Below the pieces are notes generated by a model. That model was given only the letters and a program-made list of their open reading frames with translations. It searched no databases and was not told the origin of the DNA. From Nitrosopumilaceae archaeon (GTDB taxonomy: Archaea > Thermoproteota > Nitrososphaeria > Nitrososphaerales > Nitrosopumilaceae), in NCBI GenBank assembly GCA_965200155.1, contig CBDATR010000024.1, positions 256,001 to 320,000 on the forward strand: a stretch of DNA of 64,000 nucleotides. The letters run 5' to 3'. Positions 1 through 61,157 of the stretch are shown piece by piece; the first letter of the stretch is position 1; each line of letters begins with the position of its first letter. The translations under genes and the position numbers were made by a program.

Positions 1-935
1 GGCCTTGGTATCGCGAGAACCATGAACAATCTATCATTCCCGGGACATGCGCTCATTCAAAATCTTTGAGCGCACCAATAAAAGAACGAGGCCGGGAGAA
101 CGCAAATTTGAGATTCATATCAACATACGAGTGAAACAACCAAAACATGTCAAGACCGATGTCATTCGCGGTGGCTGTCACGGCAGATACCAATGATAGA
201 ACAGCAGTACATAACATGAGGCATCGCGGGATATTACGGGAGAACCGTTACCTCCAGAGCATTAAATCTCAAAAGGGTAAGCGCAGGAAGCGAGAGATCG
301 AGAAGAAAATCATTCAATTACTACAGAAACATAGCTAACGACTCCATGAATAGAATAGTCCATGTCATCACCAAAGGTGTAGACAAGGTGGTCGTCGAAA
401 ACCTGTCGGTTACAGGAATGACTGCTCACGGGGAGAACCGCAAGAGAACAATGAATCGAATGATGTGCGATAACCGCGCTGGCACATTCTTGCACAAGCT
501 GAAGCAGAAATGTGGTATGAGTTCACGTCTTCCGGAATCTTATGCACAAATCACATTAACTGTCGCGATCAGTTATGCGTAAATTTAGACACAGGTGAAC
601 TCATACGAAATGTGAGATACTGGGAGTGGAACGGGAGGTCATACGTGCGCAGTATAACAGCCAGACCTGTCATGTGGGCACCATTCCAGAGAACCACGTT
701 TAACTAGGGATGTATTCAGATGCACCCGATGTAACCAGGAGAGTGACGCGGACATTAATGCCGCGTACAGTAACCGGTTTCCTTGCACGGGGTGGCAGAG
801 CGTGTCGTCCGGAGGCGTCAAGGCGGGAATAATGGTGACAAGCCAAAACCATGTACCGTTCAGGAACGAGGGTAGCGCGCGGCGAGCCAACTAGGCGCCA
901 TAAAAATCATAGTCAAAGACTTATGGTGACTGCTA
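1..935 (+). pseudogene. tnpB: TnpB (RuvC) pseudogene, copy 1 of TIR-bounded element, truncated by window edge; right TIR ends at 935
   Basis: Fragments VVVENL (RuvC II), YNSQTCH, FRCTRCNQESDADINAA (Zn finger/RuvC III) across frameshifts; ends in caaagacttatggtgactgcta followed by TA. Confidence 0.8.
515..606 (+). mobile_element. 92-bp MITE (IS66-type ends), copy 1
   Basis: TIR GTATGAGTTCAC/GTGAACTCATAC; 8-bp TSD gaaatgtg at 507-514 and 607-614. Confidence 0.95.
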
Positions 936-2638: not shown

Positions 2639-2879
2639 GAATCATGGTGAAAAAGAATATGTAATTAAATCTAATGAAGACGAAAATAATCGCTTTGGTC
2701 GCTCCAAGCCACAGTTATAGCGGTCACCATAAGTCTTTGAGAACATGGCACCTCGTTCCTGGACAGTACCTGGCTTTGGCTTGTCACCATTATTCCCGCC
2801 CTGACGCCTCCGGTTGGTCGGGAAATGGTGCCCCACCCCCGGACGACACGCTCTGCCACTCCTACAGGGAAACCGGTTA

Positions 2880-3925
2880 CTAAACGCCGCGTTGATATCG
2901 GCGTGAAATTCCTGGTTACATATTGAATGTGTCCCTAGTTGATCGTGACTTGTTGCCAACGTGTCCACACACGTGATAGGTCTGGCTCGTTGGGCGGGTA
3001 AACCGCCCCCTCGTGTATCTCGCTGGCACAGCCACCAATTCAATCCCCAGTGCCTCGCACTTTTGTACTACTTTCCGGCGGAACTAGCCTACCCGGTTCT
3101 CACGCATGGAGCGGTTCATTGTTCTTTTCCGGTTCCCGCCATGACTGGTCATTCGCTTTCGGTGATAAATCCTCTAGTATTACCTTGTCCACACCTTCGG
3201 TGACCGCGCGGACTACTCTATTCATGGAGTCGTTCGCGATATTATTCGCTTTCTGTCGTAGTTGAATGATTTTCTTCTCAATCTTTCGCTTCCTGCGCTT
3301 ACCTTTTCGCGTTCTAATACTCTGGAGTGCGCTAATCTCCCGTAATATGGAACAATGTCTCATGTTGGGAATCATCGTTCTGCCATTCGTGTCAGCTGTT
3401 ACATCTAGATGTTTCCTGCCGACACCCACGCCGCGAACAACGCCGGTCGATGGTTTCTCCCGTATATTGATGTGAATCTCGAATTGACGCTCCCTACTAT
3501 TGGTTACTTGTTCCACTAGAATGAGCGTATGTCCCAAGAATGATCGATTGGTTTGGTTGTTCTCACCACACCAAAACCGCACAGGTTCAACTCTAACTCA
3601 CCGCGGCGGATTGGTGGTCTTACACATGATAGTATGATCTGTCACGCCGGTGTGGTATGTAATTAGAATGATCCTCGTACGCGCGCCTGCACGCGACAGA
3701 CGCCTGTAGTATGGCACCCCAGCCATAGTTAGCTTGTAACTCACGCACCCATTCAATATCACGGCGCCACTTTGTCAATTCCAGGAACAAACAATTCTTG
3801 TTGGACGGGTAAACCGTCCCCTGATAGCCGTTCTAGAACGCGGTAGCTGATTCACGTATAATGAAACGCCCTTCATTAGGCCATATGGTGATCTTGAACT
3901 GTTTTTGACCTTGGCCGGATCATGT
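2880..3925 (-). pseudogene. tnpB: TnpB pseudogene copy 2
   Basis: VILEDL and HADINAA motifs, frameshifts; RuvC I Asp replaced (RGVGVG); boundaries approximate. Confidence 0.8.
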
Positions 3926-4861
3926 CAATAGTACGAAAAGTAAGTCCGCTCAGGATCCGGCGTACAGTAGCTGACTATTTCATTGCACAAGCCATATGGT
4001 AAAGAGAATAACAGAGGAATCAAGACAAAAGAGGCGTTGCCACAACCAACATAGCTCAAGACCTGAAACAAGACACGTACGAAGATTGTGAACCAGAGAA
4101 CGGGAACGACTCGAGTAAAGATGGGCAGGCCCATGATACCAATCACCGCCACCCAGATACGAATGGTAACTGAAACATACGGCAAGGATCCCGCCGGAGT
4201 AGTACGTATTGCAAAGAGGCTTTAGACAGAATTACAATATATCGCGCAGTATATCGCATAATGAAAAAGAACGGTACGGCAGGATCATCACCTGCAAAGT
4301 CAGAGTGGGTACGCTATGAGCGTAAATATTCCAATGCAATGTGGCACTGGCATGTAATGAAAGATGAGCGCTTCAGGGGACTGAATCTCATAGATGATGC
4401 ATCCAGGTGCATCGTCGGGGCGGCACTATTCTAGCATACAACCTCAGAGAACGCCACTCTACTGAGATTGGCAATGAAACGATTCGGTGCCCCTGCATCT
4501 TGGATAACGGCGCGTGTTTCGTAGGACAATAAAAGGGAAAAAAGAACTGGAAACCCACTATTCTAGGAAGAACTGCTGGATCAAGACATCATACTAATCA
4601 ATTCCAGGCCATACCACCCGCAGACAAATGGCAAACTGGAGCGCTTCCATGGAATGATTGAGGACGAGATTTGGCATTATGACAGTCTCCGGGATTATGT
4701 TGACTACTACAATGAGAGAAGATTGCACTTCTCACTGGATATAGATAACGGCGAAACACCACTCCAGGAATAAAAAGGCGACCCAGACAATTAGGACAAA
4801 TGATGAAAAATGGATGGAGCGAGATACCAATGACTAGCGGACCGACTTTTCATATATTACA
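3923..4861 (+). mobile_element. IS481-family remnant (integrase core pseudogene), copy A
   Basis: TGT...ACA ends with imperfect ~26-bp TIR (gaaaagt..gtccgct); translated fragments DDASR, DNGA, SRPYHPQTNGKLERFH and YYNERRLH. Confidence 0.85.
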
Positions 4862-5269
4862 TGTCATAGTGATTACTAACTTGGATCCAAGCATTAACAT
4901 CTGAGATTTTTTAAACAAACTTTATGGTATTCACCGACAATGCCAAGTACGTCCAGCGGAAGGCTATTTGGCTTTGATCATGCGTGGAATTGAAAAGGCC
5001 AACCATAAAGGAGGGTGCTCCCTACCAGTATGCTGTGGGCATGTTACATGACACTGAGAATGGCATTAGGTATGAGATACAGGCAGGTATCCGGATTCCT
5101 TGCAGGACTACTAGAAGGGCACCAAACCCCGCACTACTCCACAATATACAGACACGGAAAAGATCTTGACATCGACAAGGGGAATGACATGATTGTCGGC
5201 ACAGACAAAAAGCTGACGAGAGCCATGATTGTTGACTCGGCCGGCCTTGAATCGTGGCGAGTGGATTAG

Positions 5270-5361
5270 GTATGAGTTCACGTCTTCCGGAATCTTGTAC
5301 ACAAATCACATTAACTGTCGCGATCAGTTGTGCGTAAATTTAGACACAGGTGAACTCATAC
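5270..5361 (+). mobile_element. 92-bp MITE copy 2
   Basis: 12-bp TIR; TSD tggattag. Confidence 0.95.
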
Positions 5362-5548
5362 TGGATTAGTGCCAAATGGAAAAAGAAGCGCGGATTCATC
5401 AGTGCTCGCGGACTAGGAGAGCATATGCATTTACGGTTACCGGCGAGTGGGTTGGGAATACGCGCATGTTAATCAATGCAGTACTGGGCTCGTATGCAGA
5501 AGAGCCACAACTGGACAGGAAGCACACCCGGGAATTGGAAAGTTCCGG

Positions 5549-5640
5549 GTATGAGTTCACGTCTTCCGGAATCTTATACACAAATCACATTAACTGTCGC
5601 GATCAGTTATGCGTAAATTTAGACACAGGTGAACTCATAC
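5549..5640 (+). mobile_element. 92-bp MITE copy 3
   Basis: 12-bp TIR; TSD agttccgg. Confidence 0.95.
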
Positions 5641-6398
5641 AGTTCCGGACCCATTGCAACAGTTGCCATCTCTGGCAGGACCAACAGATAAGCCACCACC
5701 CGTAAACGCGCTGACTAACGGTGTGTCCCCCTTTACCGAATAATTATGAGAAGCGCGCATTTAATCTGGAATTACTTGCAGATGACGCATACGCGTCCAG
5801 GGATAACATGAAATTGTGCAGTGATAATCGAATCCGGACAACCATTCCACTTCAGATAAATTCCACCAAAGGAAAGGCGACTCATGGGGACTTGCAGCCT
5901 TGGAGGAAGTCCGGAATCGTCCATTTTCCGCCTTTCTGATTAGGAAAAGGCCAAAAACAAGCAGTGCTGGAAAGCGGCAAAAGGGTACAACAGGCGATGG
6001 ATAATCGAGATAATCATAGAGCCGGTTCCCGTTCAAACGATTATTCGGGCACGGATTAATGGCGCGGAAATGGGATAACATACGAGTACAACGAGTGGGT
6101 GGACGCGGCAGCAACGTAGATTACGACATGGGGAATCCGTATTCAGTCAGAGTCAGTTATGTAACAAACTCATACCCGGCAAAGACTTATGGTGGGCGCT
6201 ATACACAATGCTTGCGCCGCAATGACAAGTTGGCGCATATGGGGGGCCGCTCCATATACCGCAAGTAAATTTGGGGTAGCGCACTCAAACATACCACCGA
6301 GCTTGCTAGACCCATTTCACAAGTGTACACCTCAATCGGTGATGACTAAAACGGTGACATAGATGAGCCTTATATGACAATGTGGTGATTTTTCCCAT

Positions 6399-13057: not shown

Positions 13058-14251
13058 CTATAATGCCTCATACGTCTCACGCCACTTGTGGTATGCCATG
13101 ACCATATCCTGAGAGACGCTGGGTTTACGACGGGTCATTATCTGCCGGAAGTCATTCATGGTGAGATCCCGAGGTTTTTGGGGCTCCTCCCCCTCGACTG
13201 GCTTTCTATAGTCTGGAGAGTTGAACAGTTCATGTACTATCTTTAGTTGTGCGCCTTGGCATACGTCGCGTATATCACTGGCGCTGTATCCGTCAAACAG
13301 TTTGGCCAGCTCCGCCGGTTTTACCGTTTTGTCTGTATGCAGATCAGCGATATACTGAGTGAATAAAGCCTCACGTGCTTCCAAAGAAGGTAATGCCACA
13401 TAGATTCTCTTTTGAAATCGCCTAAGAAATGGCCAGTCCAGTGACCAAGGCTTGTTGGTAGCCCCAATCACATACATCATGAGGTCCTTGCCCTTGCCAG
13501 ACACACCGTCCATCTCGGTTAGGAACTGGTTTCGTGTCCTGACCTCGCCGCCCACTTCGCTTCTCCTAGATCCCAGTAGCGAGTCCACTTCGTCTACAAA
13601 TAGTATTACCGGTTTACTCTCGCGCTCGGCATGGCTTCGTGCAATCTTGAATATTTTAGACACATTTTTCTCTGCCTCGCCCAGCCACTTACTCATCATT
13701 GATGATGCATCGACATTGATAAAGTAGCCATCCATCTCGCTGGCTGTGGCCGCCGCCAGCATAGTCTTGCCAGTCCCAGGCGGCCCATATAGTAACATAC
13801 CCTTGGGCCAGCCTAGAGGGAAGAGGTCAGGCCTCTCGGTGGGATATATTATAGATTCACGCAGTGCGCTTTTGGCATCTTCAAGGCCTATAACCTCTTT
13901 CCAGCTGACATTGGGCTTCTCCCTCATCACCAGCTCCTCAAAGTCGTTCTCTTCTTCCTGCTGCTTGATTATGTCATCCTGCTCTTTCTTGGGAGTATTG
14001 GTATCTGCTACCGGTTCCAAATTTCGCCCATCCCGAAGTAGCTCAATGCGCTTGCGGTACGACTTGCATCGAGACTGGTATATGGGATTGAGTTTGCTTT
14101 TGGGGTAGAGACTCAATAGCTTAACGAGTGTATCTATTGCCATTTGATAGTTAGTGATGGCCATCCCCCGTGCCCCATGGGAGTCAAAGCGTATAGCATC
14201 AGTGGCGTATTTGCTGGCATTATTCTCTAATTCTTGTGGTGCACTACTCAT
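13058..14251 (-). CDS. cdvC: Vps4-like AAA ATPase CdvC (MIT + AAA)
   Basis: N-terminal MIT domain, GPPGTGKT, FVDEVD, ATNKPW.LD and RRFQKRIY. Confidence 0.9.
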   Translation of the reverse strand: MSSAPQELENNASKYATDAIRFDSHGARGMAITNYQMAIDTLVKLLSLYPKSKLNPIYQSRCKSYRKRIELLRDGRNLEPVADTNTPKKEQDDIIKQQEEENDFEELVMREKPNVSWKEVIGLEDAKSALRESIIYPTERPDLFPLGWPKGMLLYGPPGTGKTMLAAATASEMDGYFINVDASSMMSKWLGEAEKNVSKIFKIARSHAERESKPVILFVDEVDSLLGSRRSEVGGEVRTRNQFLTEMDGVSGKGKDLMMYVIGATNKPWSLDWPFLRRFQKRIYVALPSLEAREALFTQYIADLHTDKTVKPAELAKLFDGYSASDIRDVCQGAQLKIVHELFNSPDYRKPVEGEEPQKPRDLTMNDFRQIMTRRKPSVSQDMVMAYHKWRETYEAL

Positions 14252-14706
14252 GCTCGCCCGCCTCCGAGAGTTGTCACACAAATGTCATCAACCCGGTCAC
14301 ACACAGATGTCTGTTCCAAGATACTCTGGACCTGTAGGCGATCCGCTGCATTAGACTGGGCATGAGTCATAAGGCGGGTGTTCTGTATTTGGTTGCACGA
14401 TAACTTGGACTGAGACAGAAGTTCATCCACCTCCCCATCAAGGATATCAATGCCCAGACTCGTCTCTCGCATTAGATTTCCCACCTCAGACATTATTGCG
14501 TACAGATCACGCTTTTCCCTATACTTGTCAAGCATGCACTCCAGCAAAAACAGAACCCGAGACGTATCTTCAAGTTCTGTGGTATCCATATCTTCTGCCA
14601 TTTTTGGTATCTTGTCAAGTTTCTTGTTTACGCGCCTGCGTATGGTACGTATGTATTCCACGCTGTGTTCTATATCCGTTGATGCAAAGGGAATATTCGT
14701 CACTAA
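14248..14706 (-). CDS. Hypothetical helical protein directly upstream of cdvC (start uncertain)
   Basis: 3' part of ORF 14248-15108; the 5' part of that ORF is TnpB-element tail and not genuine; stop overlaps the cdvC start. Confidence 0.55.
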   Translation of the reverse strand, partial: LVTNIPFASTDIEHSVEYIRTIRRRVNKKLDKIPKMAEDMDTTELEDTSRVLFLLECMLDKYREKRDLYAIMSEVGNLMRETSLGIDILDGEVDELLSQSKLSCNQIQNTRLMTHAQSNAADRLQVQSILEQTSVCDRVDDICVTTLGGGRA

Positions 14707-14783
14707 TGGATAATGTAGAATTAGTATTTGAATACTAGGTATGAATCCACCTGTCCACACTGGGCCATTAATTATAGTGGCCA

Positions 14784-16227
14784 TAGCTGTCACCATAAGT
14801 CTTTGAGAACATGGCACCTCGTTCCTGTACAGTACACGGGTTTGGCTTGTCACCATTATTCCCGCCCTGACGCCTCCGGTTGAGTGGGGAACGGTTCCCC
14901 GTCCCGGACGACACGCTCTGCCACTCCTACAGGGAAACCGGTTACTAAACGCCGCGTTGATATCGGCGTGAAATTCCTGGTTACATATTGAATGTGTCCC
15001 TAGTTGATCGTGACTTGTTGCCAACGTGTCCACACACGTGATAGGTCTGGCTCGTTGGGCGGGTAAACCACCCCCTCGTGTATTTCGCTGGCACAGCCGC
15101 CAATTCAATTCCTAGTGCCTCGCACTTTTGTACTACTTTCCGGCGGAACTCGCCTACCCGGTTCTCACGCATGGAGCGGTTCATTGTTCTTTTCCGGTTA
15201 CCACCATGACTGGTCATTCGCTTTCGGTGATAAATCCTCTAGTACTACCTTGCCTGCACCTTCAGTGACCGCGCGGACCATTCTATTCATGGAGTCGTTC
15301 GCGATATTATTCGCTTTCTGTCGTAGTTGAATGATTTTCTTCTCAATCTTTCGCTTCCTGCGCTTACCTTTTCGCGTTCTAATACTCTGGAGTGCGCCAA
15401 TCTCCCGTAATATGGAACGATGTCTCATGTGGTGAATCATCGTTCTGCCATTCGTGTCAGCTGTTACAGCTAGATGTTTCCCGCTGACATCCGCGCCGCA
15501 AACAACGCCGGTCTATGGTTTCTCCCGTATATTGATGTGAATCTCGAATTGACGCTCCCTACTATTGGTTACTCGTTCCACTATCCTGAATGAGCGCATG
15601 TCCCGGGAATGATCGATTGGTTTGGTTGTTCTCACCACACCAAAACCGCACAGGTTCAACTCGAACTCACCGCGACGGATTGGTGGTCTTACACATGATA
15701 GTATGATCTGTCACGCCGGTGTGGTATGTAATTAGAATGATCCTCGTACGCGCGCCTGCACGTGACAGACGCCTGTAGTATGGCACCCCAGCCATAGTTA
15801 GCTTGTAACTCACGCACCCATTCAATATCACGGCGCCACTTTGTCAATTCCAGGAACAAACAATTCTTGTTGGACGGGTAAACCGTCCCCTGATAGCCGT
15901 TCTAGAACGCGGTAGCTGATTCACGTAAAGTGGATCATCCTTCTCAAGATTGTATGGTGACTTGGCGGACTCGTTCTTATTCTTCACCTTGGCCGGATCA
16001 TGTTTCAATTCTAGAGTGGTTCCGGGTATGTAGTAATCACCAAGACTGATCTCGGATACCGCCCTGTCATACACGTAATCGGACGTGTGACCGAATATCT
16101 TGGTGCGCCGGGAAAACTCCTTATTAGTTTTCAACAGTATAATGACGGTCCGGGTTATGCCGCCCACCATCTGCTGATTCTATAAAAGTACGGTCCCATA
16201 CCCGGCAAAGACTTATGGTGGGCGCTA
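14784..16227 (-). mobile_element. tnpB: TIR-bounded TnpB element copy 3 (1444 bp, most complete; tnpB frameshifted)
   Basis: TIR tagctgtcaccataagtctttg / caaagacttatggtgggcgcta; N-terminal ORF 15844-16170, RuvC I GADVSG, VVLEDL and HADINAA; no transposase inside. Confidence 0.85.
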
Positions 16228-16382
16228 TACAAATCGCCGCGCCCAATGCGGTCATGTTATAACACATTCAAGGTACGAATTAGTCCATCCCCACATTTCA
16301 CGTACGGTAATGACTAGTGCAGTTTGTGCCCAACATTAGTTAATACACAAAACCCATACGACGTAGGGACATGCTTTTGGAG

Positions 16383-20045: not shown

Positions 20046-20347
20046 AGCCCCACACACGACCCACACCAATCTCGTTTGCGAGATGGCAAGAGCCAAATTT
20101 CTCCAGTATTGAGTCCTTATGTATGCGGCTGGCGCCATCCCACATGTGCCCCATACTGATCTCTTTTGAAAGACGTTCATAATCATAGCCCAATTCATTC
20201 AACATATCACTCTGACGAGAGCTAACATACCAAGACCACAACCGCACCATACTTATCTCTCTGATGAGACGCGAATAGCCAAATTTGGCCACCATTGTCC
20301 CCTTATGGATATCGGTGCAATGGACCCAGAGACATCATACCTATCTC

Positions 20348-20448
20348 GTATGAGTTCACCTGTGTCTAAATTTACGCACAACTGATGGAACAGGTTGTTC
20401 TAGTTAATGTGATTTGTGCATAAGATTCCGGAAGACGTGAACTCATAC
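20348..20448 (-). mobile_element. 101-bp MITE variant B, copy 4
   Basis: 12-bp TIR; TSD cctatctc; central agaacaacctgttcc replaces gtcgcg. Confidence 0.95.
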
Positions 20449-21098
20449 CCTATCTCGGCCACGGCACGATCATAACCTATTTCATCTAGCAGAGTATTCT
20501 TGTGCTCTGCGCTGAACCAATCCCACAACTGCTTCATGCCTATCTCATTTGCAATGCGGGTATAGCCAACCTCCTTTAACATGGAATTACGTTTGTTTTT
20601 GAACCACCGACTATTGCACCAATCCCACAGCTCCTCCACACCTATTTCATCTGCAATACGTGTGTAGCCAACCTCCTTCAGCACGTTTTGTTTTTGTCTT
20701 TCATCACACCAGTCCCATAATTGCCTCATACCCAGTTTATTTCCAACACCCAGATCTCTGAGTTCAGCGTAAATATCCATACCCATTATGACCTGCGGCA
20801 TTATTAAAAAACAGTCATGAAATCTTGTACGCGCGTAGTCGGCAGTGATTGTTTAGTTTACCGCAAGCCAAGGCGACATACACTTTTGCCATCATTAGTG
20901 GATTCCGATACATATAGAATTGTCTGGGAAATTTGTGTGTCCGGGTAACACAGTAGTACTGAGGGCGACATCATCCCAGTATACTGTAAGAGCGCGTCAG
21001 GGCGCCGATCTCAGGCGTGTAAATTAGCCCGACATCCATCTGGCACGTCCACGCGCCTAAATCTGGAATGGTTAAACAAGCACACCGCCACACTAGTA

Positions 21099-29926: not shown

Positions 29927-30027
29927 GCATGAGTTCACGTCTTCCGGAATCTTGTGCACAAATCACATTAACTAGAACAACCTGTTCCATCAGTTGTGCG
30001 TAAATTTAGACACAGATGAACTCATAC
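29927..30027 (+). mobile_element. 101-bp MITE variant B, copy 5
   Basis: TIRs with single mismatches; TSD gaattgtt. Confidence 0.93.
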
Positions 30028-30330
30028 GAATTGTTTAATCTTTGACACAGTAATGGAATGTCATGTGCGCTCTTATGAAATGGTGTCCAGAGAGAGTACG
30101 TCTAAGAGACCAAGCAGAGAGCCAGACCATATCAAAAATGCAAATGAGTGCATACGCCTTGATGAAAATTTATCAATAGTGCAAATGGCTAGGTGCAAAT
30201 CAAGTATAAGAACAACATATCACTACGATTAGTGTGAACTCACAAAATGCAGGTGATTCGTACAAGTTTGCGTCTTTTCCAATGTGCGTAAATTTAGGTT
30301 ACAGGCAAATACAAAATTAGTATTAACCAG

Positions 30331-36024: not shown

Positions 36025-36114
36025 TAGCAGTCACCATAAGTCTCTGAGTAACAAATCCTACATTTGTCACACATAATCCTCAACTTGTATGTCACAGACT
36101 AATGGCGCTAGCCA
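36025..36114. mobile_element. 90-bp degenerate mini-element with the TnpB-element TIRs
   Basis: TA|tagcagtcaccataagtctctg ... cacagactaatggcgctagcca|TA. Confidence 0.6.
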
Positions 36115-38864: not shown

Positions 38865-39132
38865 GATTGTTACTAGAAATTCATGTAATACAAGAGTTTG
38901 GGTTGTATGAGTTCACGTGTTTTGATCATATGATAAGATTGTAATTGACTTGGTACGACAATAGACCGTATGCGCAGAATCACTTCTCCCACCCTGCACG
39001 TCTAAACCAAGTTGTTAGATACGAACAATTGACCTAGTATCATGGGTTTTCCCACAGACTCGTGTGAAACAGAAAAGTTAAGACCTAATTTTGTAATACC
39101 AGGTATGCTAAAAGCAGAAGAACTCACCAGGG

Positions 39133-39224
39133 GTATGAGTTCACGTCTTCCGGAATCTTGTGCACAAATCACATTAACTGTCGCGATCAGTTGTGCGTAA
39201 ATTTAGACACAGGTGAACTCATAC
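39133..39224 (+). mobile_element. 92-bp MITE copy 6
   Basis: TSD caccaggg; empty site present in IS5 copy 2. Confidence 0.96.
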
Positions 39225-39350
39225 CACCAGGGAGCAGTTAGTCACAGAGTACTACCGGCTACGCACCAGGTCCGAGGCCGAAGTAACAAACCTGCGTGGA
39301 AAAAATGACCGTTTGTGTGGAAAAGTTGACAGTCTGCACGCCAAACTTGA

Positions 39351-39442
39351 GTATGAGTTCACCTGTGTCTAAATTTACGCATAACTGATCGCGACAGTTA
39401 ATGTGATTTGTGTATAAGATTCCGGAAGACGTGAACTCATAC
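39351..39442 (-). mobile_element. 92-bp MITE copy 7
   Basis: TSD aaacttga; empty site present in IS5 copy 2. Confidence 0.96.
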
Positions 39443-41265
39443 AAACTTGAAGCTCAAACAAAGAATTCCCTTGTTTCAAATCTTGATGACATCATAGAAC
39501 GCAAGGATCAGCTTCATTCCCTGACCGGATGCACTCCGGAAGAGTTCAAATGGATACTAACCAGATTCACAGAATACGTAGAGTCCCTGGAAGGCGATGA
39601 TGCACGGCGATTCTTAGAACTTACAAATGATCGCGGCCATGTGAACAAATTTCCGGTCAGGCATGTACTCTTAGTTACACTGATACGCCTGCGCTGCAAC
39701 ACAAAGCAGGAGCTTCTTGCTGCAATACTCAAGATAAACCAGTCAAACATATGCCGTTACATCCAGTTTACAAAGCAGGGACTGATCAAGATACTCCCAA
39801 CGGCCGATACCGTTGCAAAAGCAATATCGCAAATCAAGTCAGCATCGGACTTTAAGGAAATTGTTCCAGGCCGAGCCGGAGGGGAGATAAAGACTGACGG
39901 GACACATGTACGTGTACAACGTCCTGAAAAAAATCAGGAGGCAATGTACTCTGGTAAACAAAAAACCCACACGTATAACGTACAGATAACATCAAACAAG
40001 AAAAGACTGATAATTCACGTAAGTGGAGTATATGAGGGAAAAAGACACGATTATGGTATATTCAAGAATGATATTCCCCTCGGTGGCAAATGGGGCAAGT
40101 CCCTAAAAGAATCAACCACGCTGCCATCTGAGAAGATAACAGTAATAGCAGATGCAGGATACCAGGGTATGAAAGACTTCCTACCCGGCGCAAAGGTCAT
40201 GATTCCATACAGGGGTAGGGAATCACTCACTAAAACTGAAAGGAAATACAACCAATATGTATCAAAAAGGCGCATATTAATCGAGAATGTAATTCGAATG
40301 CTAAAGGTATATCGTAGATTAAGTCAGGTATATGATGGCAGTCGTGAGGAATTCCGGGAAGATCTACTCGTAGTATCCGGGTTGCATAATTTACACATTA
40401 TGCACAAGCATACCAGGTACAAGAAATTCTTGAAAAATATCTGTCCATAATTTCCGTGTTATTATAATTCGAATATTACTCATCAGAAAATCCACTAAAT
40501 TAATGGGTTTTGTGGTAACCATTTAGCTCACTCATGATATACGTCATCAAGATCCGGTCACCCCACTACACGACATTTGTAATCACGGCATACGTTAGTG
40601 CTGGCAGGTGCCATTCACATTGTTCATGCTTGACTGATTGTGTGCCATAAAATACACCCCAGTTTGAAGCAACATGGGCTATTCCTGTCAATCATGCGCA
40701 TAAGGTCTAATATTGCGCTTAAATACCAAGTTTGAAATAGAATCTAATGAGTAGGCGTACAACACATAATAAATAGGAGTAGGAAAACCGGCTGCTTCGG
40801 GACACCCTTGCGTCCACCAAGAGGAATCTTGCAGATGCGATGAAACGCGTGAAGGTATTGTAAGATGATATGTCAAATATTATAGAAGAACTGAGAAAAA
40901 TCATACAGGATTTTGGATATATTCGTCAATATGTGGCTAAATTAGAAGAAAAACACAGCAAAGCTGCGGTAGCCGCGGCCCGGCTCAAATATTATGAGAA
41001 TGTCAACTCCCCGCCATCACTCCAGTACAGGGCAGACAAGAGGAAGAGCGGAAAGCTAAGGAAGGGGAGCAGACAAGTACTGGATCCATAAGAAAGGCTG
41101 GCAGTCAGGCGAGACACAAGGGCGTCTCCCGTAAACGTAACCCCGATAGAATTACGCATCACATGAGGGCGATAACCTGGTATGCGACTGCAGTAAAATA
41201 ATGACAGTAATTGGTATAAAATCGCGATACGTGACGCATTTAATACCGGCCAGGACAGGATATTC

Positions 41266-41357
41266 GTATGAGTTCACGTCTTCCGGAATCTTATGCACAA
41301 ATCACATTAACTGTCGCGATCAGTTATGTGTAAATTTAGACACAGGTGAACTCACAC
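41266..41357 (+). mobile_element. 92-bp MITE copy 8, no TSD
   Basis: Flanks ggatattc / cgacagaa differ; joins the IS66 remnant to a TnpB remnant. Confidence 0.92.
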
Positions 41358-41903
41358 CGACAGAAAGCGAATAATATCGCGAACGACTCCATGAATAGAG
41401 TAGTCCACGCGATCACCAAAGGTGTGGACAAGGTAGTCCTAGAGGATTTATCACCGAAAGCAATGACCAGTCATGGCGGGAACCGGAAAAGAACAATGGA
41501 CCGTTCCATGCGCGAGAACCGGGTAGGCGAGTTCCGCCGGAAAGTAGTACAAAAGTGCGAGGCACTGGGGATTGAATTGGCAGCAGTGCCAGCGAGATAC
41601 ACAAGGGGGCGGTTTACCCGCCCAACGAGCCAGACCTGCCACGTGTGTGGACACGTTGACGACAAATCACGATCAACTAGGGACACTTTCAATATGTAAC
41701 CAGGAATTTCACGCCGATATCAACGCGGCGTTTAGTAACCGGTTTCCCTGTATGGGGCGGCAGAGCGTGTCGTCCGGGGTGGGAACCGTTCCCCGCCCAA
41801 CCGGAGGCGTCAGGGCGGGAATAATGGTGACAATCCAAAGCCATGTACTGTCTAGGAACGAGGTTCCATGAAAATCATAGTCAAAGACTTATGGTGACTG
41901 CGA
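41358..41903 (+). pseudogene. tnpB: TnpB element copy 4, 3' half with right TIR
   Basis: VVLEDL, CHVCG and HADINAA; ends caaagacttatggtgactgcga|TA. Confidence 0.85.
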
Positions 41904-46955: not shown

Positions 46956-47280
46956 AGCGTAAATATTCCAATGTGGCACGTAGACTGGCATGTCATGAAA
47001 GATGAGCGCTTCAAGGGACTGAATCTCATAGATGATGCATCCAGGTGTATAGTCGGAGCGGCACTATTTGAGCATGCAACCTGAGAACGCCACTCTATTA
47101 CTGAGACTGGTAATGAAACGATTCGGCGACCCTGCATCTCGGATAACGGCGCGTGTTTCGTAGGACAATAAAAGGGCAAAAAGAACTGGAAACCCACTAT
47201 TCTAGGAAGAACTGCTGGATCAAGACATCATACTAATCAATTCCAGACCATGCCACCCGCAGACAAATGGCAAACTGGAG

Positions 47281-47379
47281 GTATGAGTTCACCTGTGTCT
47301 AAATTTACGCACAACTGATCGCGACAGTTAAAGAACCGGTTCTTTTGTGCACAAGATTCCGGAAGACGTGAACTCATAC
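47281..47379 (-). mobile_element. 99-bp MITE variant C, copy 9
   Basis: TSD aactggag; empty site in IS481 copy A near 4634; internal palindrome aaagaaccggttcttt. Confidence 0.95.
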
Positions 47380-59281: not shown

Positions 59282-59482
59282 GTGAGTATTGTCATCTTTA
59301 GAATACTTTTAAGTCTTTCTTGGTGATAACAAACTTGCCACTATCCGGGAGATACGTACAGGTATGAGTTCACGTCTTCCGGAATCTTATGCACAAATCA
59401 CATTAACTAGACCTTATGCGCATGATTGACAGGAATAGCCCATGTTGCTTCAAACTGGGGTGTATTTTATGGCACACAATCA

Positions 59483-59574
59483 GTATGAGTTCACCTGTGT
59501 CTAAATTTACGCATAACTGATCGCGACAGTTAATGTGATTTGTGCATAAGATTCCGGAAGACGTGAACTCATAC
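59483..59574 (-). mobile_element. 92-bp MITE copy 11, in the IS5 3' non-coding region
   Basis: TSD cacaatca; empty site in IS5 copy 1 near 40636. Confidence 0.96.
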
Positions 59575-59766
59575 CACAATCAGTCAAGCATGAACAATGT
59601 GAATGGCACCTGCCAGCACTAACGTATGCCGTGATTACAAATGTCGTGTAGTGGGGTGACCGGATCTTGATGACGTATATCATGAGTGAGCTAAATGGTT
59701 ACCACAAAACCCATTAATTTAGTGGATTTTCTGATGAGTAATATTCGAATTATAATAACACGGAAA

Positions 59767-61005: not shown

Positions 61006-61157
61006 CTTGGTTTAGACGTGCAGGGTGGGAGAAGTGATTCTGCGCATACGGTCTACTGTCGCGATCAGTTGTGCGTAAATTTAGACACAGGTGAACTCAT
61101 ACACGTACAGTGCCATGCAGTGCTGTTGACAATTTTTGTGATGTATGAGTGGCGTAT

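Follow-up and report, generated by a model that had tools for sequence, protein, structure and literature searches.

TnpB, the ancestor of Cas12, usually travels with IS200/IS605 and IS607 elements, which are excised without a scar, and the few cases in which it is carried by cut-and-paste DDE transposons figure in discussions as a bridge to the Fanzors of eukaryotes. A 64,000-nucleotide stretch of archaeal DNA (the window, meaning the whole stretch that was analyzed, C24:256001-320000 of the 2.38 Mb assembly G000, which has 51 contigs and is 87.6% complete) holds a tnpB gene in a 1444-bp unit that is bounded by two inverted copies of a 22-bp repeat and abuts TA at one end and CA at the other. 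What moved this tnpB, and what could the nuclease have done for such a unit? We conclude that the unit is a non-autonomous tnpB element. It was probably mobilized in trans, by a DDE transposase of the IS630 family whose gene lies on another element, and its TnpB would have been guided with the help of the motif TTG.

A tnpB Unit Between Terminal Inverted Repeats

The unit is made up of the following parts, where TIR denotes a terminal inverted repeat and TAM a target-adjacent motif, the short motif that TnpB needs beside its target.

14784..16227, minus strand: solo tnpB element, complete and non-autonomous, 1444 bp, bounded by two TIRs
14784..14805, plus strand: right-end TIR at the tnpB 3' end, TAGCTGTCACCATAAGTCTTTG, exact match; inner sequence AGAACATGGCACC, end class B3
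16206..16227, minus strand: left-end TIR at the tnpB 5' end, TAGCGCCCACCATAAGTCTTTG, exact match; inner sequence CCGGGTATGGGACC, end class B5
16228..16229, no strand: TA flank at the left end, a copy of the target duplication, for which empty sites at other genome positions are the evidence
14782..14783, no strand: CA flank at the right end, read in the sequence
16230..16232, minus strand: TTG in the tnpB sense, directly outside the left-end TA, candidate TAM from the sequence and family statistics
14800..16170, minus strand: tnpB pseudogene in at least three frames, zinc finger disrupted, from the list of open reading frames (ORFs)

The preliminary description of this DNA had listed 22-bp ends at seven places, and all seven carry them: 914-935 (minus), 2718-2739 (plus), 6180-6201 (minus), 14784-14805 (plus), 16206-16227 (minus), 36025-36046 (plus) and 41882-41903 (minus). 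The pattern TAGCNNNCACCATAAGTCTTTG has seven matches in the window, five exact and two with one mismatch, against a chance expectation of 0.02, and none of 100 shuffles reached seven. As had been described, TA stands next to six of the seven ends and CA next to the end at 14784; this CA is taken to be a mutated TA, since TA adjoins 118 of the 130 ends with distinct flanks in the genome. The unit does have a TIR at each end in inverted orientation, with TnpB-like coding on the minus strand and no other gene, and it aligns end to end with the family consensus (1-1471) at 90.6% identity.

This repeat family is widespread in the genome. A 15-nucleotide core of the TIR has 102 matches with at most one mismatch, where the reversed control has none, and 137 with at most two. 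At up to two mismatches, the full TIR pattern has 110 matches in this genome and none in nine same-genus genomes, while in 31 further relatives the single two-mismatch match equals the single match of the control pattern. Ends were sorted genome-wide into classes by the 20 nucleotides just inside the TIR, and the flank statistics count only ends with distinct flanks (130 in all). The window ends fall in several element classes that have only the 22-bp TIR in common. Genome-wide, the classes are these.

B5: tnpB 5' ends, 24 ends
B3, B3v and Z: tnpB 3' ends, 20, 6 and 5 ends
X1 and X2: the two ends of an element X, described below, 13 and 16 ends
M1 and M2: the two ends of an 87-90 bp miniature inverted-repeat transposable element (MITE), 9 and 14 ends
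Y: 4 ends
Unclassed: 26 ends

Fifteen tnpB elements retain both ends; they measure 1309-1642 bp, and 13 of them have TA on both sides. Their left and right TIRs differ at two to three inner positions (TAGCGCC vs TAGCGGT).

Duplication of the Target TA

Paralogous empty sites were obtained by joining the flanks of paired elements, searching the genome with the joined sequence and then reading the junctions. The duplicated TA, which the preliminary description had proposed to look for in empty sites of relatives, was found in this way for one tnpB element and for MITEs. The tnpB element at C10:271053-272583 occupies a site that reads ACATTTGTTA-element-TACGCAC, and the empty paralogue of this site at C24:331449-331578 reads ACATTTGTTACGTAATC. 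Similarly, the MITEs at C34:62500-62588 and C43:34990-35076 stand in CACATA-element-TATGCCC, and four uninterrupted copies of the host repeat were read as CACATATGCCC or a close variant. The TA is duplicated upon insertion of both the tnpB element and the MITE. Also, the X ends at C1:20861 and C43:17772 stand at TA within tnpB copies, where other tnpB copies are uninterrupted.

For the site of the window unit, no base-pair junction could be read in the same-genus genomes, in which coding identity is 69-73% and intergenic DNA is too diverged. The Vps4-like and TrmB-like neighbor genes are syntenic in these genomes, and in G006, for which the distance was calculated, they stand about 1.5 kb closer together than in the window. 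Public sequencing runs containing the window are labeled sponge metagenome, and among the contigs of two RNA runs and two other runs none spans the element; the contigs end at the element ends, as at any repeat, and lend no support to expression or to an empty allele. A metagenome scan for the TIR used the 15-nucleotide core, which is too short and says nothing on the family elsewhere: the TAGC extension occurs in none of 120 core matches at 80 metagenome loci (L054-L133), among the matches listed (119 stretches reported).

A Probable Partner of the IS630 Type

The preliminary description had called for a search of the genome for an IS630 (DDE_3) transposase next to the same TIR, and such an element, here called X, was indeed found in the same genome. 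At C13:13693-15733 (2041 bp) X carries the same 22-bp TIR as the tnpB elements. It contains three copies of an unrelated 92-bp MITE, without which it measures about 1.75 kb, longer than the 1.1-1.3 kb of a typical IS630 element, and about 780 bp upstream of its transposase are without assigned function. Its stop-to-stop frames resemble IS630 transposase (e.g., IVIEYPVGHPYLNPVKEFWSVLKRRM), and nine intact DDE_3 proteins of 230-376 aa match a 130-aa fragment at 47-64% identity, with E values down to 1e-29; most of the nine also carry HTH_32, HTH_33 or HTH_28. One intact homologue of 370 aa (P0035) matches at eight places in the assembly, which together cover residues 2-370, none of them intact. 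Because the transposase gene is in pieces, all six matches of the DDE_3 profile in the genome fall under the cut-off. In two other genera of the family, intact relatives of the X transposase are bounded by the TIRs TATAGCGATGCGCAAAAG… and TATAGCGACGCTCGTAAA…, which start with TA followed by TAGCGA and have the terminal TA followed by TAGCG in common with the TIR studied here. The IS630 proteins of same-genus genomes were considered as relatives of X and set aside, being just 26-39% identical over the fragments; the wide search gave closer ones.

A partner of the Y1 or serine-recombinase type, which would have spoken against a DDE transposase, was found nowhere in the assembly: Y1_Tnp has no match in the genome, where the same search matched in six of 14 control genomes, and Resolvase has none, with matches in 12 of the 14. 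Together with the TIR shared with X and the duplicated TA, this supports the earlier proposal of a non-autonomous TnpB family mobilized in trans by a DDE transposase.

It is highly improbable that the unit is an ordinary IS200/IS605-type element of the IS1341 group, moved as a single strand by a Y1 TnpA, with incidental inverted repeats. According to passages of a 2026 review, IS200/IS605 with a Y1 TnpA is the usual vehicle of tnpB, and these elements have neither TIRs nor a duplication (PMC13565253). In the present family a single OrfB_IS605/TNB tnpB fills the element and a conserved short motif lies by the 5' end, as in the IS1341 group, and a tnpA could be missed in an assembly that is 87.6% complete. 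The rival is nevertheless already contradicted by the TA duplicated at empty sites, as IS200/IS605 makes no duplication, and the 22-bp TIR is common to an IS630-type element and to MITEs. The absence of any Y1_Tnp match also distinguishes the family from the IS1341 group, and the absence of a serine recombinase from IS607.

With the IS630 family (IS630/Tc1-mariner), in turn, the system has in common a DDE_3 transposase of about 370 aa with an N-terminal HTH, TIRs, TA duplication and derived MITEs. It differs in the length of its partner X and in that the tnpB elements lack a DDE_3 transposase of their own, tnpB being their sole gene. The tnpB elements are non-autonomous passengers on IS630 ends and not IS630 elements proper.

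Passages of Altae-Tran et al. (2023, PNAS) describe a TnpB branch, DDE-6, that is linked to IS630 transposases and has symmetrical ends, report inverted repeats in all six DDE-linked groups, and regard as trans-mobilized those solo TnpBs that have nearly the same ends as systems with a transposase (PMC10691335). The present elements are like the DDE-6 branch, as those passages present it, in that TnpB lies within IS630-type symmetrical inverted-repeat ends, solo copies included (PMC10691335). They are unlike it in that transposase and tnpB occupy separate elements, a separate HTH gene was not observed, every copy is dead and the host is a Nitrosopumilaceae-like archaeon. The arrangement of tnpB on IS630 ends is therefore of a kind already published in 2023, in a paper that may already list these archaeal loci (PMC10691335). 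A literature search for TnpB in Thaumarchaeota found nothing relevant. The locus is a new, well-documented archaeal case of this published kind, now a fossil and not likely to be active at present; it adds base-pair proof of the TA duplication and a named partner family.

As one element described in the same source encloses an IS630 transposase, an HTH protein and TnpB (PMC10691335), the ancestor here could likewise have been an autonomous element with both genes in one TIR pair, from which the solo tnpB elements and X arose as complementary deletion derivatives. The 780 bp of X without assigned function would leave room for such a history, which we nonetheless regard as unlikely. Among the TIR pairs found at up to 4 kb, there is no pair with both genes inside, and the two contacts between X and tnpB (C1:20861 and C43:17772) are nested insertions at two different positions, with X's own TIR end at a TA inside tnpB.

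The tnpB Gene and Its Decay

The preliminary description had the element filled by a tnpB reading frame with three RuvC motifs. The motifs are there (RuvC-I GADVSG, RuvC-II VVLEDL and RuvC-III HADINAA); the single open frame is not. Of the coding sequence, 15844-16170 has the N-terminal 108 aa, an ORF at 15198-15440 has VVLEDL, one at 14981-15217 has the zinc finger's first half and one at 14248-15108 has HADINAA. With its motifs in separate frames, the window tnpB is therefore a pseudogene.

Fragments of the window copies score near the Pfam cut-offs for OrfB_IS605 and TNB, and on sister copies both OrfB_IS605 and Cas12f1-like_TNB match; L004:834-1757, for example, reaches 40.2 bits for TNB (cut-off 26.3) and 35.1 bits for OrfB_IS605 (cut-off 30.5). 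The genome has 30 TNB matches, and no full-length frame contains any of them. At 349 aa (L005:747-1796), the longest frame that runs through a TNB match is kept open solely by an inserted 92-bp MITE that is read in frame (…YEFTSSGILCTNHINCRDQLCVNLDTGELI…). The tnpB copies are 76-96% identical to their majority consensus, which in turn is 54% identical to the intact homologue P0005 over residues 86-384; residues 1-51, 86-384 and 389-430 (P0005 numbering of the alignment) fall in alternating frames. The consensus also lacks the second CxxC of the zinc finger, where 15 intact relatives have D224, E310, D396 and four Cys invariant. An intact tnpB of the 22-bp TIR family was recovered nowhere. As every tnpB and transposase copy found is broken, the family seems to have died out in this genome.

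Between its left TIR and the start codon of tnpB the window copy has a hairpin, which was dismissed as chance, as it occurs in one of 15 copies.

Related TnpB Elements in Other Genomes

The nearest intact TnpBs measure 404-485 aa, are 45-50% identical to a 307-aa query frame and include proteins named from Cenarchaeum metagenome-assembled genomes. Among species-representative genomes, close relatives (E 1e-19 or better) occur only in Nitrosopumilaceae or Cenarchaeum records, and the next nearest, in Thorarchaeota, are much weaker (E 1e-7 to 4e-10). The same-genus genome G006 has at least five intact tnpB copies of 453-454 aa, and another record has 15 full-length matches.

Related elements (L173-L187; L037-L044 in G006) are about 1.43-1.57 kb long and encode an intact TnpB of 451-454 aa; the loci L188-L192 and L195 have the same contig coordinates as G006 elements and are no extra evidence. 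These same-genus elements resemble the present ones in their homologous TnpB, in being bounded by TIRs, in a G before the left-end duplication and in homologous sequence just inside the right end (…CCATG….TTTTCGTGGCGCC). Unlike the present ones, they have intact TnpB, the TIR GGGAATTATATAC…, which is unrelated to the TIR here, and AT-rich target duplications of 8 bp, perfect in 16 of 21 elements examined. Given the unrelated TIR and the 8-bp duplications, a different transposase moves them, and given the inner homology at the right end across the two kinds of element, the tnpB module has changed transposon ends within the genus. For the elements with 8-bp duplications, three solo ends in G006 were inspected and hold no partner transposase. 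In one G006 element (L017) the tnpB ORF ends within the right TIR.

A Candidate Target-Adjacent Motif

For the 24 tnpB 5' ends, counted by distinct flanks, the three positions of host DNA next to the TA hold T in 15, T in 16 and, directly beside the TA, G in 21. In the other named classes, 17 of 81 ends have G at the same position (Fisher p = 4.8e-9), made up of 3/20 for B3, 0/6 for B3v, 2/13 for X1, 3/15 for X2, 2/6 for M1, 5/12 for M2, 0/4 for Y and 2/5 for Z; the unclassed ends, with G in 6/25, were left out of this comparison. No other end class shows a TTG-type motif. Since the G is present in the unoccupied copy of the tnpB empty site, it is host DNA. The related elements with their other TIR behave alike: among the 16 with perfect 8-bp duplications, G comes just before the left-end duplication in 15 and T stands two positions further out in ten, and G follows the right-end duplication in two (Fisher p = 6.8e-6).

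This motif, TTG or its G, looks like a candidate TAM from its sequence context, because it is specific to tnpB elements, is found at one end and lies beside the duplicated target in two types of transposon. The arrangement would suit such a role. The occupied right junction (…GCTA followed by TA) is without the motif, and the unoccupied site presents TTG and then TA with the right flank, the sequence that a right-end guide would match.

It is possible, though we rather doubt it, that TTG is not a TAM and reflects a preference of the transposase for certain targets at the left TIR, or selection for promoter-like sequence before tnpB. The inner difference between left and right TIRs, noted above, could give a transposase such a preference; the AT-rich TTGTATAG precedes the start of tnpB by about 60-75 bp, and the family consensus is already frameshifted. 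The motif is absent, however, at both X ends and both MITE ends, and the related elements, with another TIR and an 8-bp duplication, have G before the left-end duplication only (15/16). Also, its position is fixed relative to the duplicated target and not to the element end, which fits a nuclease motif and not a promoter of fixed spacing.

The left-flank motif common to two transposon backbones is the sole observation here that may be new. We propose with some reserve, and without holding it to be the likelier case, that in this archaeal genus the tnpB-plus-guide module may be a portable homing cassette, transferred from one DDE backbone to another, unrelated one, of which one makes a TA and the other an 8-bp duplication, and that it kept (T)NG just outside the left duplication. 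If so, the guide would start with the duplicated target and the nuclease would cut unoccupied sites only. This would be comparative evidence that RNA-guided empty-site targeting serves cut-and-paste DDE transposons in prokaryotes, whose benefit from TnpB is called unclear in passages of the 2026 review (PMC13565253). The intact sister elements in related genomes carry a testable prediction, namely that the TAM is close to (T)NG and that the guide starts at the duplicated target.

Proposed Movement and Its Difficulties

In the mechanism that we favor, the transposase would bind the shared 22-bp TIR (TAGCG..CACCATAAGTCTTTG), excise the element and paste it into a TA, which thereby would become duplicated. 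The only cargo is tnpB, presumably with a guide RNA gene at its 3' end. RNA running from the tnpB 3' end through the right TIR into the flank could then guide the nuclease to the matching unoccupied site, which would be recognized by the short motif TTG next to the target.

Several observations weigh against this account. The empty-site evidence comprises one site for a tnpB element, whose left flank is GCG and not TTG, and two MITE sites with the same flanks that are possibly one event. On the fragments of X, DDE_3 scores 25.1 and 22.6 bits against a Pfam cut-off of 28.6. The assembly, 87.6% complete, has no intact copy of either gene. Relative to P0005, at least two frame breaks persist in the majority consensus of the 15 tnpB elements, which means that the amplified copy was itself defective or that the consensus is inaccurate at indels; in the former case that copy may not have encoded a functional TnpB, and any reading of the TTG flank that depends on TnpB is weakened. 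For the presumed guide RNA, Rfam gave no relevant match, and an alifold of 22 right ends gives a terminal hairpin, with the TIR as one arm, that has few compensatory changes. For a consensus fold across three TnpB families, the alignment was too noisy.

Comparison with Fanzors

Fanzors, the TnpB homologues of eukaryotes and viruses, resemble the present system in being RNA-guided nucleases within TIR-bounded DDE transposons, Tc1/mariner included, and their TAMs sometimes agree with the sequence of the insertion site, according to passages of Jiang et al. (2023; PMC10530073). In passages of the 2026 review, the 5' duplication of Fanzor elements is read as part of the TAM, and IS630, ISL2 and IS1031 are given as partners of TnpB (PMC13565253). 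The protein studied here differs in being prokaryotic. A profile search of solved structures, in which prokaryotic TnpB and Cas12f came first (E 2.8e-17 to 1e-11), ahead of the viral 'TnpB-like protein L79' (1.4e-7), puts the tnpB lineage apparently nearer to prokaryotic TnpB and Cas12f than to Fanzor.

Other Elements and Repeats in the Window

The remaining ends of the 22-bp TIR family belong to the following elements.

2718..6201, minus strand: second tnpB element, interrupted; consensus 236-1471 at 2718-3929 and a 30-bp left end at 6172-6201
5..935, plus strand: diverged tnpB remnant, 69-70% identical to the consensus, with a right-end TIR of class B3v at 914-935
41358..41903, plus strand: tnpB 3' remnant of 545 bp (consensus 932-1469), with a right-end TIR at 41882-41903
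36025..36107, plus strand: 83-bp MITE of the same TIR family, no coding capacity, TIR match with one mismatch

The two parts of the second tnpB element are separated by about 2.2 kb of foreign DNA, and this insert (3930-6171) holds a weak DDE_Tnp_1_5 match at 5015-5269 (26.8 bits, under the cut-off) and two copies of the 92-bp MITE. The 83-bp MITE is 82% identical to a 90-bp MITE at C34:34889-34978. The ends at 36025 and 41903 belong to different elements, the one being the start of this MITE and the other the close of the tnpB remnant, and host genes (msrB-like and FEN1-like) lie between them. The remnant abuts a copy of the unrelated 92-bp MITE at 41266-41358.

That unrelated MITE is palindromic, about 92-100 bp long and present in large copy number across the genome; copies of it have inserted into the tnpB elements, and element X has received three. 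Its copies in the window are the following.

514-611, 5268-5361, 5548-5640, 20342-20449, 29929-30030, 39132-39226
39351-39442, 41266-41358, 47280-47379, 59360-59411, 59483-59575, 61064-61102

The window also encodes, at 39410-40450 on the plus strand, an intact transposase of 346 aa with HTH_Tnp_4 and DDE_Tnp_4 (Harbinger/IS5-like), which is unrelated to the 22-bp TIR family. Elsewhere in the genome, a further repeat of about 110 bp (…CTCACATATGCCCATGAATT…) has dozens of copies and is a target of MITE insertions; examples lie at C34:218447-218576, C10:460018-460129 and C31:62480-63046, with three tandem copies at C31:62475-63046.

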